Source of the DNA: a virus
Lineage: Duplodnaviria; Caudoviricetes
Virus record (IMG/VR): IMGVR_UViG_3300022867_000024
Coordinates: 1-42,522 of that record
Direction: 5' to 3' (one strand)
DNA: 42,522 bases
Positions within the stretch are counted from its first letter, which is position 1, and each line of letters opens with the position of its first letter. Below the pieces are notes generated by a model that was not told the origin of the DNA, ran no database searches, and worked only from the letters and a program-made list of their open reading frames with translations. A program made the position numbers and the translations under genes. Below are positions 2,986 through 34,278 of the stretch, piece after piece.

Positions 2986-5900
2986 ATTGAGTTAGTATCT
3001 CAATGTAGTTTTTCCTAGCATTTTTCTTTGCATTCCTAGAAATTGTTTTTCTAGCCTTCTGCATTTCTTTAATTTGAGGAAATTCTTTAAGCATTTGTTG
3101 GTTAGCTTTTGCTTCTGCTTTATGTACAAATTCTAAGATAAACTTCTGTCTTTCATCTCTCCCTGCAACTGTGCCGTCAGGTTTTTTGTAAAGTCTACTC
3201 TTAGGGTCTGCTATAGTTTTTTCAATTAACTGTTTTAGTGTTAATCTTTGACCATTATAAGAAAGTGTAACTTCTCCTGTTAACTCTCTCCATCTGTCAT
3301 AAGCAGTTTGTTCAGTAGTTGAATTTTTAATTGTTCTTAAATCTACACCAGACTTTCTATCTATTTTTGCAGGTGGTCTATAATCGAAATCTCTATTTTC
3401 ATAAAACTTTTGTAGCATCGGGTTTTCAGTTTTAGTCATAGCAAATGGTGATGACCATAAACCAGATTTACCCCCTAAACCAAACAGCCACCCATTATCT
3501 CTCTTAATAACTTCACCATACATATTACGTTTTGGCATAATACCATCTTTACCTTTAAGTGGATTTAAAGCTAACAATCTGTCATTTAATGTAAACAGTT
3601 CTTTTTGATAATCTTCTTCAACTCTCGTAGCGTATCTTAATGTACCTGATAGTGGTGTCATTTTATAAATTAACCTAGATAACACTGAAGCACTTACTTT
3701 ATCAGGAGACCTCGTAGAAACAAAATCATCACTAAAGAAAAAGTTTGCAGTTTCTATTATATTTTTCATGTAAAATTTAGAATTAAGATTTCTAAATACT
3801 GAAGTTAAAACACCCATAGATAACTCAGTCATATCTTTCTCTACTGCTTCAGGTATGTCTTCATTAGTTCTTAAAAATTTACCAACACTATCAAACAAAT
3901 CTGCCATAATAAGAAATGGCATTATTACTGGGTCTGCTCTATTTAATGAAATATATCTACCATCACTTGTTTTGTAAGAATACGGTTGCCACCCTGTAGA
4001 CATCTCTCTTTCAGCATTTTCTCTATAATCTCTTGAACCACCTCCAGTAATTTTACCTGCTGATACGAGGCTAAATGCACCTGTCCATAAGACAAAGCCC
4101 ATAGTTGCTCTAGCGTTGGCTTCTGCTGCCGCTTCAACATTTAAGTATTTACCATCTGCTCCTGTTTTTAAAGCATGTCTTGTAGATAAAACTAATCTGT
4201 TTGCAAATGGCAGATGTTCAAAATTCCATTTAATCAAGTTAGATGGAGTATTAATAAAGTGTAACCCTAATGCTCTTGTCCATTTGTGTTTACTTGTGAA
4301 AGATAAAACCCCACCTGTAATACCACCTTCTAATTTACCTGTTTCAGGGTCAATAGAATACGCAGATTGTGTATATGTACTTTCTCTAGCATATTGTAAT
4401 GGGTCATTAACTTGCAATCTATTCACGTCACTTATGTTTGTGCTAGACATGTTTGCTGTTTCTATCGCACCTCCAGAAGCAGTTTTTTGATAATCAACTT
4501 CCAGTTCTTTAAATCTTAACTTAAATTCATCATCATTGACAACACCTTTCCAAAACCCTTTACCTGTTTCTTCTCTAATTTGTGAGTTAATTTGAGATGT
4601 CATTCTTGCTTTGTAAGTCATTGTTTTAAGAAACTCATCACCTGCACTTAAAATTCTCATAGGAAAAGTTGTAGCGTAGCCTACAGGTCTAACTACATAT
4701 TTATCAAGTCCAACACCAACTGTTCCCAATCTATCTGTTAAAATTCTAGTAGTTGCTTGTAACCATCTTTGTAATTGTCCCTGTCTCATGTTGTTATCAA
4801 ACTTCATTTGCTTACTATCAAGAATACCTCTGCCCTCTGTGAAACTTCTTTTGGCTGCTAGTAGTGCATCTTTAGTATAATAAAATTGGTGAATGTAAGT
4901 ATCAATAGCTTCTTTAGCTAATGTGTTTGCTCTTTTTTTATCATTAATAGATAAGAAACCTGCTCTAAATAACATAGTTAAAGGCTTCCACTGTGTTTGA
5001 AATAGACCAGATACAATGTTAATTGCGTGTGTATCAGGAGAAGATAATAAGTTATTGTTTATAAATTCTGATGTTAAATCCCACCCATCAACTTTTCTAG
5101 CATTCTGTAATGCCATAATAACTTGGTCTGTATCGTGCAGTTTAGCTATTGCTTTATAAAATTCTTTTGGGTTTCCTACTTTTAACGTAGACATTGTAGG
5201 GTCTTCAGGGTTTATTTTTAATTCTGCTGCTCTGGTAACATCTTTGTTTACTTGCATGAACCTCATGGCTCTAGCTACATTTTTAGTAATTTCTTTTTGA
5301 TTTATTAAAGTTTCACCTGCAATGCCTTGTCTTATATTCAACTCTGCTAATATTTTCGCTTCTTCATCAGGAGTTATATCTAATACATGTAATTGATTTC
5401 CTAGTTTAATTATATCATCACTTTGTTTAGCCAATAAATCACCATGTGCTAGTATTTCAGCATATAACAATCTGTCTGCTTCTGCTCTTGATTTTCCTAG
5501 CGCTAAAACTGCATCACTATCTAAACCTAAAATTTGTGCCTGTGATATTGCATATTTTTCAGAGACAACATCATTATCTATTCGCCCCTCTTTGACCATC
5601 TGGTCTGCAAGGTTTTTTAAATGTAGTCTTATATGTTTAGGATTTTTATAATAATTTAATACTTCTTCAGGCGGTTTCCCAGTGCCAATAGTTTTTCTTA
5701 AATTGAAAATCTTTTCATCAATGGTTTTACCATTAAGTTTACTTTCGGTTGTAAGTCGTTCAACAGTGTTTTTATCAAGATTTTTATATAATGCTTTATC
5801 AGGTTTAGGTTCTGCTAAATCTTGAAACAACCTCTTGCCTGTAATCTCACTTCTTCCATATTCGTGTATATCTTTTAAATTCTTAACGGCTGTATTTTTA

Positions 5901-25286: not shown

Positions 25287-25360
25287 GGCATTGTGGCGGA
25301 ATGGTTACGCAGTGGATTGCAAATCTACGTATCCCAGTTCGATTCTGGGCAATGCCTCCA
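25287..25360 (+). tRNA. tRNA-Cys(GCA), encoded CCA
   Basis: Acceptor GGCATTG/CAATGCC-T-CCA; anticodon arm GTGGA-TTGCAAA-TCTAC; T-arm CCCAG-TTCGATT-CTGGG; U73 discriminator. Confidence 0.95.
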
Positions 25361-29724: not shown

Positions 29725-29819
29725 CATTGCATTAAATCGCTATCGTATTGGTCTCTTCTACTATCATTGTTCAGTAACATTAATCAACTATCCTTTAACT
29801 TTCGTTATCCCTCTATCGG

Positions 29820-30695
29820 TTAAGCACTTTTGTTAATCGAATTAAGGACATTTACTGCACCCATCAAATTATTTGGTATCAAATGAGCATATCTTTTTAT
29901 CATCTTCCACGACTTGTGACCTAGCATTGCGCCTATCATGTGAAGTTCAACTTTACCTGATTGAGCCAGACGAGTTGCACAAGTGTGTCTTAAACAATGA
30001 ATAACAAACTCTTTGTCTTCAGTAAGGTTCATTGCTTTTCTTAGTCTTCTCCAAGTATTCTCACATGTCCAATACTTCAACTGTGAAAACACAAGGTCGT
30101 TTCTCTCCGCTTTAGTTAACAACTTATCAACGATTGCTTTAGCACGATATGTTAGTGGTATTCCTCTAGCTTCACCATTCTTAGTGAGACTAGCAGGTAA
30201 ATTAACAACAGTGTGTCCGTTGTTAGTGTGTACCATCAACTTCTTAATAGACAGTGCTTCCCCTAAACGCATTCCAGTGTCGATTAAAAATAAAAAGAAA
30301 TCTGAATAATTAACCATATCCCATTCAGTTAATAATTTAATAATCTCCTTCTCTTCTGGAGGCTCTAGGTATCGTTGTCGTCCATTGTTTTCGCTTTGCC
30401 ATTCAATGTGAGGCATTCTATCTAAATGATAAATAGATTGTCTTTGATTGGCATAACGTAACATCTTAGAGATTGAGGACATATAACGATTTATAGTAGC
30501 AGGAGCAAATTTCCTGTCTTCTAAAGTATCCACGAGTTGTGCTATGTGGGTATCGTTAACTTCAGTCACAAGCATTCCACGACCAAGCATTTCAATTACT
30601 TTTTCGCCTCTACTCGCTTGCAACTTTTCCCAACCTTTATCTGTTAACTTGCGGTGTATCTCCGATAGCAACTTTACATTCTTTTGTTGCAACAT
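29820..30695 (-). CDS. int: Tyrosine integrase
   Basis: TGMRLGE (R), TKNG (K), HCLRH (HxxR), LGH, RYAH (Y). Confidence 0.95.
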   Translation of the reverse strand: MLQQKNVKLLSEIHRKLTDKGWEKLQASRGEKVIEMLGRGMLVTEVNDTHIAQLVDTLEDRKFAPATINRYMSSISKMLRYANQRQSIYHLDRMPHIEWQSENNGRQRYLEPPEEKEIIKLLTEWDMVNYSDFFLFLIDTGMRLGEALSIKKLMVHTNNGHTVVNLPASLTKNGEARGIPLTYRAKAIVDKLLTKAERNDLVFSQLKYWTCENTWRRLRKAMNLTEDKEFVIHCLRHTCATRLAQSGKVELHMIGAMLGHKSWKMIKRYAHLIPNNLMGAVNVLNSINKSA

Positions 30696-30719: not shown

Positions 30720-31046
30720 TTATTTGACCAAATCAGAAAGAGTGCTGAACACTCTTCTGCCTTTTGCAGTTAAACGTACAAGTTTTCTTCTACGTTCATC
30801 TGGGTCTTCAAAAGCCTGTAATAAGCCTATCCCAAGTCCGCCCCTAGTCTTGTCACTTAATTTGTAACAGTTCCTAGAAACACTTGATTGAGCTATGCCT
30901 AATTTAGTTGAGATGGTTTGCATACTTACTCCATCTTTGTCTCCATATAAACTAACATAAAAGAAAACCGCTATTGTTTGGCTTTCCATATGACTGTCGA
31001 ACTTACGCATTTCCTCTATTATTTTCAATAAATTCAATCCGTGCAT
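30720..31046 (-). CDS. MarR-type winged-helix regulator
   Basis: LGIAQSSVSRNCYKL...EDPDERRRKLVRLTAKGR. Confidence 0.85.
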   Translation of the reverse strand: MHGLNLLKIIEEMRKFDSHMESQTIAVFFYVSLYGDKDGVSMQTISTKLGIAQSSVSRNCYKLSDKTRGGLGIGLLQAFEDPDERRRKLVRLTAKGRRVFSTLSDLVK

Positions 31047-31544: not shown

Positions 31545-31605
31545 GCAAAATACACCGTCTAGTCATTAGACGGCATTTCATGGATTAACCAATCGTCAGT
31601 TTTGC
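31545..31605 (-). ncRNA. Hammerhead ribozyme, type I
   Basis: GCAAAA CUGACGA U-UGG uuaau CCA-U GAAA UGCCGUCUA augac UAGACGGUG UA^ UUUUGC: full core plus three stems; predicted cut between 31551 and 31550. Confidence 0.85.
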
Positions 31606-31607
31606 TT

Positions 31608-31820
31608 TTAATTTATCTTTAACTCAGCATCATCTTCTTTTTTTAACTGGTCTTGTTCTATTTTTAACTGATTAATTTCTTTTTGATTTGCAATTACGAT
31701 ATCCATAAGTTTAAAAGATTGTGCCATTAAGACATCAATGCACTTTCCTATAGATAATTGTTTGTGTAAGTTTTCCAGTTTTATTGATTTATAGTTACTT
31801 GTGTGTTCATTTTTTGTCAT
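31608..31820 (-). CDS. Hypothetical early protein
   Basis: 70 aa, coiled-coil C-terminus. Confidence 0.55.
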   Translation of the reverse strand: MTKNEHTSNYKSIKLENLHKQLSIGKCIDVLMAQSFKLMDIVIANQKEINQLKIEQDQLKKEDDAELKIN

Positions 31821-31846: not shown

Positions 31847-32021
31847 ATAAACTCGCCGTCTAGTCCTTAGAGAGAGTTTTTAGAAATAAACTCACCGTCT
31901 AGTCATAAGTATTGTTTTTTAGAAATAAACTCGCCGTCTAGTCATAAACTCGCCGTCTAGTCATAAGCATGTTGGCAAAGAAATTTTGCTACACGCCTAC
32001 AAATAAACTCGCCGTCTAGTC
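31847..32021. repeat. Five direct repeats of ATAAACTCRCCGTCTAGTC
   Basis: Copies start at 31847, 31886, 31925, 31944 and 32003; gaps 20, 20, 0 and 40 nt. Confidence 0.95.
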
Positions 32022-32098: not shown

Positions 32099-32494
32099 TT
32101 AACTTAGCTTTTTTAATGGAAACTGTACTACGTTGCTGTTTGCCATCAAATAGATATAGAACTCATCACCGCCCAAAAACTCATGTAAGTTCCAATTATT
32201 AAAATGGTGTGCTTTCAGCTTTTTAAGGTTTTTTAATAAACTTAAAATTGAAGCCTTATTATTATTTATATTATAATTACAAGTTTGTAATTTGAATTGT
32301 ATTTTTTCAACGTCTTTACTAGGTACAAAAACTTCAAACCAATTAAAAACGTCATCAAAAAACTTCTTTTTGTTTGATGCACCGCTTAAAGGTTTGAAAG
32401 TAAAATATTGCTTACCCTTGTTTGTAGGCTCATATTTACAATTCAGTACATCTGTGCCGAGTATAGTGAATTGCTTGATTTCATTTTGTAGCAT
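32099..32494 (-). CDS. Hypothetical early protein
   Basis: 131 aa, GAGGAG RBS. Confidence 0.7.
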   Translation of the reverse strand: MLQNEIKQFTILGTDVLNCKYEPTNKGKQYFTFKPLSGASNKKKFFDDVFNWFEVFVPSKDVEKIQFKLQTCNYNINNNKASILSLLKNLKKLKAHHFNNWNLHEFLGGDEFYIYLMANSNVVQFPLKKLS

Positions 32495-32533: not shown

Positions 32534-32576
32534 AAAAAGTCTCTAAGCCTACTCTGTGTGAATAGGCTTAAAGTCT
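32534..32576. repeat. 43-bp exact intergenic repeat, copy 1 (hairpin)
   Basis: Identical to 32989-33031. Confidence 0.95.
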
Positions 32577-32988: not shown

Positions 32989-33031
32989 AAAAAGTCTCTA
33001 AGCCTACTCTGTGTGAATAGGCTTAAAGTCT
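32989..33031. repeat. 43-bp exact intergenic repeat, copy 2 (hairpin)
   Basis: Identical to 32534-32576. Confidence 0.95.
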
Positions 33032-33035
33032 GTTT

Positions 33036-33545
33036 TTAATTCGTTCTATAAATGTAATAATCAACGTCGTCGATGTTAGCTTCTTCCTCCGAACCATCAT
33101 AATGATTAAGAAAATGACCTCTGCCGTCCATTTTAGCGTCACGTTTCCATTTCTCAGTATCAAAATAAGAACGTGCATTCTCTGGCAACTCTGGCAAAAT
33201 GCAGTCGTCAAGATAGCTGTCCAGAGCCTCGTCCCATGCGCACTCTGCTTCTTCCTCTGTCATTACATCATATAAACGTTCTCCGCTTTCTTCTGTTGTG
33301 TATGCGTCCACGTTCTGCCAAACGTCAAAAACTGACGAGCCACAAATTATAGGCAAGTCATTAAAGCCGTCCGTCTGTGTACTGTCATAATCTCCGCTAT
33401 CTCTTAGCGTGACCGCTAACGCTTTCATTCTTTCTTCTGGTTCTTGTGTGCCAACTGTTAGAAAATTAAAGCCGTCTACTGTGTGTTTAACAAGTTTGTC
33501 AGACGTTCTGCTAAACTCATCTTTTTTAATTGTGTTTGTTTGCAT
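33036..33545 (-). CDS. Acidic first early protein (169 aa from MQTNT)
   Basis: GGAG RBS at 33554-33557; D/E-rich; first gene after the terminal non-coding region. Confidence 0.7.
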   Translation of the reverse strand: MQTNTIKKDEFSRTSDKLVKHTVDGFNFLTVGTQEPEERMKALAVTLRDSGDYDSTQTDGFNDLPIICGSSVFDVWQNVDAYTTEESGERLYDVMTEEEAECAWDEALDSYLDDCILPELPENARSYFDTEKWKRDAKMDGRGHFLNHYDGSEEEANIDDVDYYIYRTN

Positions 33546-33558
33546 TGTGTTAACTCCA

Positions 33559-33620
33559 TTGTTTGTTTCATGCTGTCCTCTGTGCAATCGTCAGTAGCGT
33601 ATTAAACGCCATACAAACAA
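33559..33620 (-). ncRNA. Hammerhead ribozyme, type III
   Basis: UUGUUUG UA^ UGGCGU uuaau ACGCUA CUGACGA U-UGC acagaggaca GCA-U GAAA CAAACAA; predicted cut between 33612 and 33611. Confidence 0.88.
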
Positions 33621-34055
33621 GCTGTCCGTAACATCACACAGAGTGACCGCTTACAGCTTTGGAGGACTTTCCACACACTTTAAAGACTTACTCGCCCAGA
33701 TTAACCCTATCGGAAGGATTGTCACCGTGTGTGGCTCTAGATTTTTGTATGTAGATAAAAACCAGTAAAAATAAGTATTAAAAGAGTAATAACATACCAT
33801 TTACGGATTGCAAGCATTAAATTAAATTAAATCACTAGCGTATTGTTAGAGCTGTGTCTTTGGTGTGTCTTCTATGGAGGTGTTATCATTAATAATAATA
33901 ACTATAATGAATGCTTATGAGGTGTACTTGTGGTGTACCTTAGGTGTACCAATGGTAGATACTAGCTAGTAGGTAGGTATATATATATGGTGATATATAC
34001 ACTTATATGCGCATAGGATACACTATATACACAGTGTCTTTCTTTTTTGTTTTCA

Positions 34056-34071
34056 CTAAAATGGGTACTTT
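34056..34071 (-). promoter_or_regulatory. Putative phage-RNAP promoter AAAGTACCCATTTTAG
   Basis: Same 16-mer in the terminal region (phiOL/phiOR-like). Confidence 0.65.
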
Positions 34072-34111
34072 TATAATTAAATATCAATAGCCTTTGCTTG
34101 CGTTCTGTCTT

Positions 34112-34278
34112 TGGTGTAGCTGTGCGTGGCTGTGTGTGGCTGTGTGGTGTGTGTTTGTGCGTGTGTGTGCATACTTAATGAATGCGTGAGGTGTGTGAGT
34201 GTGCATATATAAAGAACGCTTGAGCGTGTGGCTGTGCGTTGGCTCTGTGTGTGCTGTGCGTTGGCTCTGTGTATGTGA
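34112..34278. repeat. GT-rich low-complexity repeats
   Basis: GCTGTGYGTG units and tandem GCTGTGCGTTGGCTCTGTGT at 34231 and 34253. Confidence 0.85.

Follow-up and report, generated by a model that had tools for sequence, protein, structure and literature searches.

Why should two hammerhead ribozymes of one phage, which differ in permutation and have unrelated stems, both carry U·U where the hammerhead consensus has the pair G10.1-C11.1? The question is raised by a stretch of viral DNA of 42,522 nucleotides, referred to here as the window, and in particular by a ribozyme on its minus strand at 31545..31605. A preliminary description had argued that such a coincidence is unlikely to be due to chance and that it marks a hammerhead subtype specific to the lineage of this phage. 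The evidence is taken up in turn, beginning with the ribozyme and ending with a second position, N17, with which the unusual pair proves to be associated.

Structure of the Type I Ribozyme and Its Partner

The features needed to describe the locus are listed below.

31545..31605, minus strand: type I hammerhead ribozyme of 61 bases, with stem I open and a GUA site; predicted cut 31551/31550
31580..31592, minus strand: stem II block U10.1-UGG-UUAAU-CCA-U11.1, with 8/8 stem positions unlike the common G-C allele and the loop kept
31551..31551, minus strand: A17, immediately 5′ of the scissile bond; 69/73 U·U hammerheads have A here (pooled types I and III, viral plus genome loci)
31608..31820, minus strand: 70-aa open reading frame (ORF), function not assigned, the last gene before the type I ribozyme; no PHROG and only a sub-threshold Pfam match
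33559..33620, minus strand: type III hammerhead with U10.1·U11.1 and GUA, just upstream of the ribosome-binding site of the ArdA-like gene; predicted cut 33612/33611

The type I ribozyme begins 2 nt after the stop codon of the 70-aa ORF. Its stem I comprises 6 bp, formed by GCAAAA (31605–31600) with UUUUGC (31550–31545), and its core consists of CUGACGA at 31599–31593 and GAAA at 31579–31576. U10.1 (31592) and U11.1 (31580) face each other at the base of stem II, which continues with 3 bp (UGG/CCA) and ends in the loop UUAAU (31588–31584). Stem III has 10 pairs and the loop AUGAC, and G16.2-U16.1-A17 stands at the cleavage site, with the predicted cut between 31551 and 31550. Stem I is open and stems II and III are closed by loops, which is the type I permutation. 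The partner ribozyme, of type III, likewise reads CUGACGA-UUG...CAU-GAAA, with its UUAAU located in loop I. The two ribozymes therefore do share U10.1·U11.1, GUA and a UUAAU loop on different stems, as had been noted from the letters alone.

Several lines of evidence speak against a chance resemblance. A descriptor of three stems, in which pair 10.1/11.1 was left free, matched the window exactly twice, at the type I and type III ribozymes, and matched none of 400 dinucleotide shuffles. The fold of the type I ribozyme has a z-score of −3.38, with equally good shuffles at 1/200; stem II is absent from its MFE structure. Among 27 distinct type I orthologues, 97.6% of cells pair and 7/20 pairs change on both sides, a covariation score that was reached by 0/500 shuffles; slid controls pair only 33–45%. 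The changes on both sides fall in stem I (four pairs) and stem II (three pairs), and stem III shows one-side changes only. Across the same 27 orthologues CUGACGA and GAAA are invariant, N7 excepted, and A15.1-U16.1 is A-U in 27/27 rows; GUA conforms to the NUH rule for H17. The ribozyme departs from the consensus in having U·U in place of G10.1-C11.1, which does not disqualify the element because U·U is a published, active natural exception. Also conserved among type I orthologues are the loop, as U(U/C)AAU, and its flanking A residues. A pseudoknot between loop II UUAAU and an upstream AUUAA was considered as a general contact and rejected, since it is possible in this genome and not conserved; a 5-bp match of loop II to a flank was found in 8/36 orthologue contexts, and no conserved tertiary partner of loop II was identified.

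The site is covered by contigs of 4/4 public sequencing runs with zero differences, although the runs share year and habitat and may stem from one campaign. Because all four carry identical letters, an assembly error is not the explanation. In three of the four runs a related phage is represented as well, by a minor contig whose stem II at this site is different.

By descriptor, shuffles and covariation, 31545..31605 is a complete type I hammerhead as judged from its sequence, in agreement with the preliminary description, and self-cleavage is predicted. Cleavage after GUA would be expected from the intact core and from the activity of the U·U/GUA ribozyme of Pseudomonas phage PaP3. The Rfam hammerhead families have a common core (CUGANGA, GAAA and NUH at a three-way junction), yet neither window ribozyme matched the type I, II or III model at the gathering score or at E ≤ 10. 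Matching an Rfam model does not define a hammerhead; the miss reflects the reach of the models, and standard annotation overlooks both ribozymes.

Genomic Setting and Proposed Role

The genes that surround the two ribozymes include the following.

33036..33545, minus strand: ArdA-like anti-restriction gene, the first gene after the type III ribozyme (phrog_2059, E 4.7e-5; PF07275 at 26.1 bits, just under the cut-off of 27)
30720..31046, minus strand: MarR-type winged-helix regulator, downstream of the predicted type I cut
29820..30695, minus strand: tyrosine integrase, its start 856 nt downstream of the predicted type I cut

The genes of the window are those of a T7-like phage with RNA polymerase (RNAP), an integrase and a MarR-type gene. 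The RNAP is 64–72% identical to those of the top 17 records, all of which are pelagiphages or one uncultured Pelagivirus, and the early region and marR-int region align with HTVC019P and relatives. By its sequence the window belongs to an HTVC019P-like pelagiphage (Autographiviridae), in which the T7-like RNAP is preceded by marR and a tyrosine integrase, and its relatives make SAR11 the likely host. In the HTVC019P group, attP is described as lying between integrase and RNAP, and HTVC019P is described as carrying a spare tRNA-Cys, its integration splitting the host gene (bioRxiv 10.1101/410191). The window has a matching tRNA-Cys (GCA) at 25287–25357 on the plus strand, between lysozyme and primase and opposite in strand to the genes. 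A short stretch resembling the tRNA-Cys anticodon, near 29730–29715 in the int-RNAP gap, is likely the attP core.

Between the two ribozymes lies a block of 2.06 kb with small early genes, the first being the ArdA-like gene. One early protein of 131 aa (32099–32494, minus strand) has a sub-threshold Pfam match to SiaC (23.5 bits versus a cut-off of 24.5). Two identical 14-pair hairpins, at 32996–33028 and 32541–32573 on the minus strand, directly follow stop codons and are followed by U runs; they may be terminators or RNase III-type sites within the block. Contig joints and loose ends concentrate at the hairpin at 32996–33028, as would be seen where two modules join. An ORF-free region at the genome end, situated between the first ribozyme and the lysozyme gene, has simple repeats that are ACAC-rich (34050–34260) and ATAT-rich (33950–34030). 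A scan for sigma-70 sites gave 14, versus 17.0 expected.

Transcripts of T7 are processed at RNase III sites, and the overall role proposed for the ribozymes is a similar one, namely constitutive processing of early transcripts. Cleavage by the type I ribozyme would separate the variable early genes from the marR-integrase module on the early transcript. The upstream early-gene message would retain stems II and III and end in a cyclic phosphate, which together would form its 3′ cap, and a 5′-OH RNA for marR and the integrase would be released. At the other end of this block, before the ArdA-like gene, the type III ribozyme would provide a 5′ cap. Transcripts may be terminated or cleaved earlier, at the hairpin-plus-U sites 33028 and 32573 inside the block, and so not extend to the type I ribozyme.

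Comparable arrangements are known. Clustered prophage and phage hammerheads that flank ardA or lie near integrases (Agrobacterium, Azorhizobium and Clostridium) are reported to cleave in vitro and in E. coli (PMC3088659, section 6), and for such clusters cleavage is described with no circles found (Perreault 2011, PMC3088659). The window resembles them in its mixed permutations at gene junctions of the early region, one before an ardA-like gene and one before an integrase module, and differs from them in that the carriers are HTVC019P-like pelagiphages.

A repeated 12-mer runs through the type I ribozyme and the region upstream of it.

31553..31564, minus strand: 12-mer GACTAGACGGTG, covering the loop end and the 3′ arm of stem III, with free copies upstream too
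31854..32021, minus strand: five free copies of GACTAGACGG(C/T)G, upstream of the 70-aa ORF

In total, GACTAGACGG(C/T)G occurs 6 times in the window and 1–6 times in relatives (L124–L196). All copies lie upstream of the integrase and on the coding strand. A hairpin with U residues after it often contains one of them, and another forms the 3′ arm of ribozyme stem III. A remnant is present at the ribozyme site in relatives without the ribozyme (L162, L173, L175, L177 and HTVC021P). The repeat may be an operator, an antitermination site or a recombination joint. Its use as a promoter of the phage RNAP was rejected, since no copy precedes the capsid or other late genes.

Orthologues and Alleles in HTVC019P-like Phages

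Related phages were compared at 66 integrase-anchored IMG/VR loci, of which 53 with at least 830 nt upstream were used for the type I slot. A type I orthologue precedes marR-integrase in 49/53. The ribozyme is dispensable in some relatives, because it is missing at the site in 4/53 loci and in HTVC021P. Cultured HTVC019P, HTVC201P, HTVC131P and Jormungand, as well as MedDCM-S35-C6, have the type I orthologue in G-C form, and HTVC031P has three other G-C hammerheads. In the HTVC019P record the orthologous sites lie near positions 3002 and 977. All pelagiphage hammerhead matches are on the coding strand.

The type I slot (n = 49) holds 42 G-C, 3 G·U and 4 U·U alleles, the four U·U loci being a copy of this same phage, two contigs that share one identical integrase, and L156. 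In the type III slot (n = 17) there are 13 G-C, 3 G·U and 1 U·U, and the sole U·U is that of the present phage. The closest relative, L126 (96% identical integrase), is mixed, with a U·U type I copy and a G-C type III copy. The absence of U·U from homologous loci, which the preliminary description had itself named as evidence against a lineage-specific subtype, is thus largely what was found.

The G-C orthologues have GUA and the UUAAU loops as well, and on this sequence comparison both are ancestral in the phage group rather than marks of a local subtype. The shared UUAAU loop was rejected as such a mark for the same reason, and also because U(U/C)AAU occurs in 25/101 type I ribozymes outside the integrase-anchored set. 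For the shared GUA, which had likewise been offered as a common trait, the subtype reading falls; the observation nonetheless pointed to the wider U·U-A17 rule described below.

Relative to the common allele, the U·U allele has three perfect compensated stem II pairs and an unchanged loop. The U·U type I rows do not form one clade on the integrase tree (42 rows, p-AU 6e-5), and recombination is suggested because an identical U·U stem II block occurs in two integrase lineages; the block was likely moved between related phages in this way.

Hammerheads are numerous in these genomes. Up to four, of types I, II and III, are found in the early region of the HTVC019P-like phages L124, L135, L145, L148, L157, L194 and L196; every one lies on the coding strand, and the GenBank records examined do not annotate them. 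In L157 (1326–1385) only 16 nt separate the type I ribozyme from the integrase start, too little for marR to fit between them. No report of a ribozyme in HTVC019P-like pelagiphages was found in the literature searched, and the word "ribozyme" occurs 0 times in bioRxiv 410191.

The U·U Pair beyond This Phage Group

The pair itself is not new. A natural U·U hammerhead of PaP3 is listed as active by Perreault et al. (2011; PMC3088659, section 8, Figures 5 and S6), who place U-U under "rare" variations and, in the sections covered, draw no link to A17. A descriptor scan of PaP3 finds one hammerhead, of type III, with U·U and GUA. The window ribozyme resembles it in the mismatch, the next pair U10.2-A11.2, the GUA site and the position in a phage early region, and differs from it in being of type I and in occurring in a temperate pelagiphage.

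The pattern search for the U-U core that had been suggested for viromes returned 123 viral loci, 41 with full structure; when U·U was sought together with a UUAAU loop, 20 loci were retrieved, and 6 of them had the full structure. A blind type III scan, which imposed nothing at 10.1/11.1 (122 loci from 3/64 parts of IMG/VR; 42 passing, 44 unique), gave 27 G-C, 17 U·U and nothing else; it fixed stem III and length features, so the 39% of U·U is not a global share. Of its 17 U·U ribozymes, 14 have U10.2-A11.2. The corresponding type I scan had a low yield, with 8/120 loci passing and 7 unique (6 G-C, 1 U·C and 0 U·U), so that the type I share of U·U may be lower. In the samples scanned, U·U is the second most common allele in phage hammerheads. 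Rare candidates with other combinations, L076 (255–306), L414 and L518, have U·C twice and A·A once, all with C17.

U·U occurs in both permutations and in diverse phages, including PaP3, a groEL-bearing phage and phages of 58–63 kb with a different gene order, and some genomes have up to six U·U copies (L439). In the 58–63 kb phages L439 (9684–15465), L440, L442 and L443, which have a T7-like primase and terminase, 3–6 hammerheads, mostly U·U, lie in a run at junctions around phrog_1314 and phrog_1297 genes. Of five U·U-rich phages compared by PHROGs, two carry the T7-like primase and terminase and another carries groEL; a Pfam DNA_pol_A search of the five gave 0/5. U·U ribozymes cluster within genomes, as the neighbours of a U·U ribozyme are 11 U-U, 12 G-C and 2 other, versus 2 U-U and 19 G-C for those of a G-C ribozyme (Fisher p = 0.008). 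This fits both copies in the window being U·U, and on this point the claim that the shared pair is not chance stands.

The same survey bears on the proposed lineage-specific subtype. In its favor, both copies of the present phage are U·U with UUG/CAU, and three other related contigs share the type I allele. Given that most orthologues are G-C, that L126 is mixed, and that U·U is found in PaP3, in the groEL-bearing and 58–63 kb phages and in many unrelated viral contigs in both permutations, a subtype peculiar to this phage group is highly improbable.

It also bears on whether U·U marks a ribozyme that has lost some or all of its activity, its site being kept for the GACTAGACGG element or for a terminator-like stem III followed by U residues. 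The 12-mer remains at the site in relatives without the ribozyme, and the 3′ arm of stem III is near invariant, with mismatch accepted in the 5′ arm in 9/27 rows, all of which this reading would accommodate. Yet the three stem II pairs are compensated with the loop kept and the core intact, and the U·U ribozyme of PaP3 is listed as active (PMC3088659). Moreover, of 16 possible combinations at 10.1/11.1, the blind type III scan shows only G-C (27/44) and U·U (17/44); decay is unlikely because it would not yield only these two. Loss of function is accordingly regarded as a quite unlikely account of the allele, and a functional variant of the core is preferred.

Association of U·U with A17

One other position, N17, which the scans left free among A, C and U, varies strongly with the U·U pair. 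In matched scans, with U10.2-A11.2 fixed and N16.2, N17 and type free (U·U, 121 loci and 21 passing; G-C, 128 loci and 73 passing), A17 was found in 20/20 U·U versus 10/71 G-C ribozymes (p = 5e-13). The blind type III scan gave 14/17 versus 3/27. In a pooled set of 846 loci and 262 unique ribozymes, the corresponding figures are 25/25 versus 37/112 for type I and 44/48 versus 18/64 for type III. A17 is also present in 5/5 G·U intermediates. A replicate on JGI metagenomes (119 loci, 21 passing), which overlaps IMG/VR in origin, had A17 in 19/20 unique U·U ribozymes and in 17/18 among new sequences, and a GTDB scan, in which 4/120 loci passed, had it in 4/4. The exceptions are 5 U·U ribozymes with C17 or U17, four from the pooled set and one from the metagenome replicate. 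The requirement is one-sided: about 19/20 U·U cases need A17, whereas G-C accepts either, and G-C with A17 is common.

Base composition does not explain this, because the contrast persists in loci under 40% GC (A17 in 57/62 U·U versus 12/59 G-C). Neither does a genome-wide taste for A17, because only 4/14 G-C ribozymes beside a U·U one have it. The pelagiphage set taken alone shows no coupling (A17 in 2/2 U·U and 30/54 G-C; p = 0.5), which is attributable to both slots being mostly GUA already.

Another conceivable explanation is shared ancestry: duplication and recombination would have multiplied a small number of U·U/A17 founders, and the two positions would not be functionally linked. The clustering of U·U within genomes would be expected on this account, as would the same stem II block in two integrase lineages and a single type III family that places 39/70 U·U sequences in one cluster. 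However, the association is found separately in types I and III, in which N17 lies on opposite sides of stem II with a variable stem between. When 244 ribozymes were clustered on stems outside stem II with N17 masked, and one ribozyme was taken per sequence cluster, the association kept a p below 6e-8 (worst 5e-8), and 22–34 separate clusters show it. Permutation within clusters gave p of 2e-4 to 3e-3, with 5–7 informative clusters only, one of them, with 53 members, dominating. Same-type paralogues on one contig switch 10.1/11.1 and N17 together (L070, L489, L048 and L336); other contigs have G-C with A17. Finally, A17 is kept while N16.2 varies, as GUA, AUA, CUA and UUA. Descent from few founders is therefore an improbable sole explanation, and a functional link between the two positions is favored.

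Possible Basis of the Association

The crystal structure of a different hammerhead shows N17 stacked on G12 and the G12·A9 pair located beside G10.1-C11.1 (PMC11300833). Compensation by A17 is plausible because N17 stacks on G12, which itself sits on pair 10.1-11.1. According to the mechanism proposed here, U·U would alter the platform under the general base G12, and the larger purine A17 would restore the lost stacking from the other side. U·U would then arise mainly in ribozymes that already have A17, and both slots of this phage group would provide such a background. U·U beside tandem sheared G·A pairs is a motif of box C/D kink-turns.

The combined evidence is read as follows, with a probability of about three in four. 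The element is a type I hammerhead at a conserved junction, with a predicted cut in the early transcript, and it carries a published U·U allele that co-occurs with A17 and is likely a co-adapted alternative to the G-C/C17 core. A broader proposal, to which slightly better than even odds are given, is that natural hammerheads have two co-adapted active-site haplotypes: G10.1-C11.1 with mostly C17, and U10.1·U11.1 plus U10.2-A11.2 with A17. The second would hold a large share in phages, would be missed by Rfam, and would have arisen repeatedly on A17 backgrounds through epistasis across G12.

A different mechanism would leave the ribozyme active and place the cause in folding. U10.1 makes G8-A9-U10.1 complementary to GUC or AUC, such that a weak stem II together with C17 would misfold and A17 would be selected as an escape. 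According to Carbonell et al. (2006; PMC1636495), NUC triplets can pair with the core during transcription and slow cleavage. Predictions for natural sequences have C17 paired off-pathway more often than A17 (median 0.17 versus 0.02), and stem II is predicted to be weaker in U·U ribozymes (median P 0.76 versus 0.98). On the other hand, GUC with GAU or GAC at core positions 5–7 is tolerated in most G-C ribozymes, and the coupling is strongest (25/25) in type I, whose triplet is transcribed after the core and stem III. The folding trap thus seems unlikely, if still the most credible of the alternatives to compensation across G12.

A17 in place of C17 is also known from viroid and satellite hammerheads that cleave at AUA or GUA (ELVd +, sLTSV −, cscRNA and sCYDV-RPV; PMC1636495, Table 1), and in the ELVd scaffold A17 is reported to be slower than C17 after folding (PMC1636495). 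No report of a U·U-A17 coupling was found in the literature searched, outside which fell most subscription papers, two key Eckstein papers and Perreault Dataset S1; in the part covered of a pairwise mutagenesis paper (PMC9901934), nothing was seen that links 10.1/11.1 to position 17. The U·U pair was already published in 2011; the natural U·U-A17 covariation and the hammerheads of HTVC019P-like phages are new as far as the literature searched goes.

A selection for AUA cleavage by Nakamaye and Eckstein in 1994 is said to have randomised positions near 10.1/11.1 and may have recovered a U·U variant. It reportedly concerned engineered trans-acting ribozymes, as distinct from natural covariation. 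If U·U was indeed recovered, this would support the mechanism and lessen the novelty.

Implications

The association of U·U with A17 is a strong one-way covariation between non-pairing positions that both touch G12. It addresses an open question in viroids, namely why some natural hammerheads keep the slower NUA site. If the two-haplotype proposal is true, it would add an undescribed long-range sequence rule to what is known of the best-studied small ribozyme, and would offer a ready scaffold for cutting NUA sites. In practical terms, searches that require G10.1-C11.1 miss a large class of phage ribozymes.

For the phages themselves, hammerheads are a regular, unannotated part of the early region in the HTVC019P-like group that infects SAR11, with one conserved at the border of the lysogeny module. 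The cultured HTVC019P-like isolates make the pelagiphage hammerheads testable.
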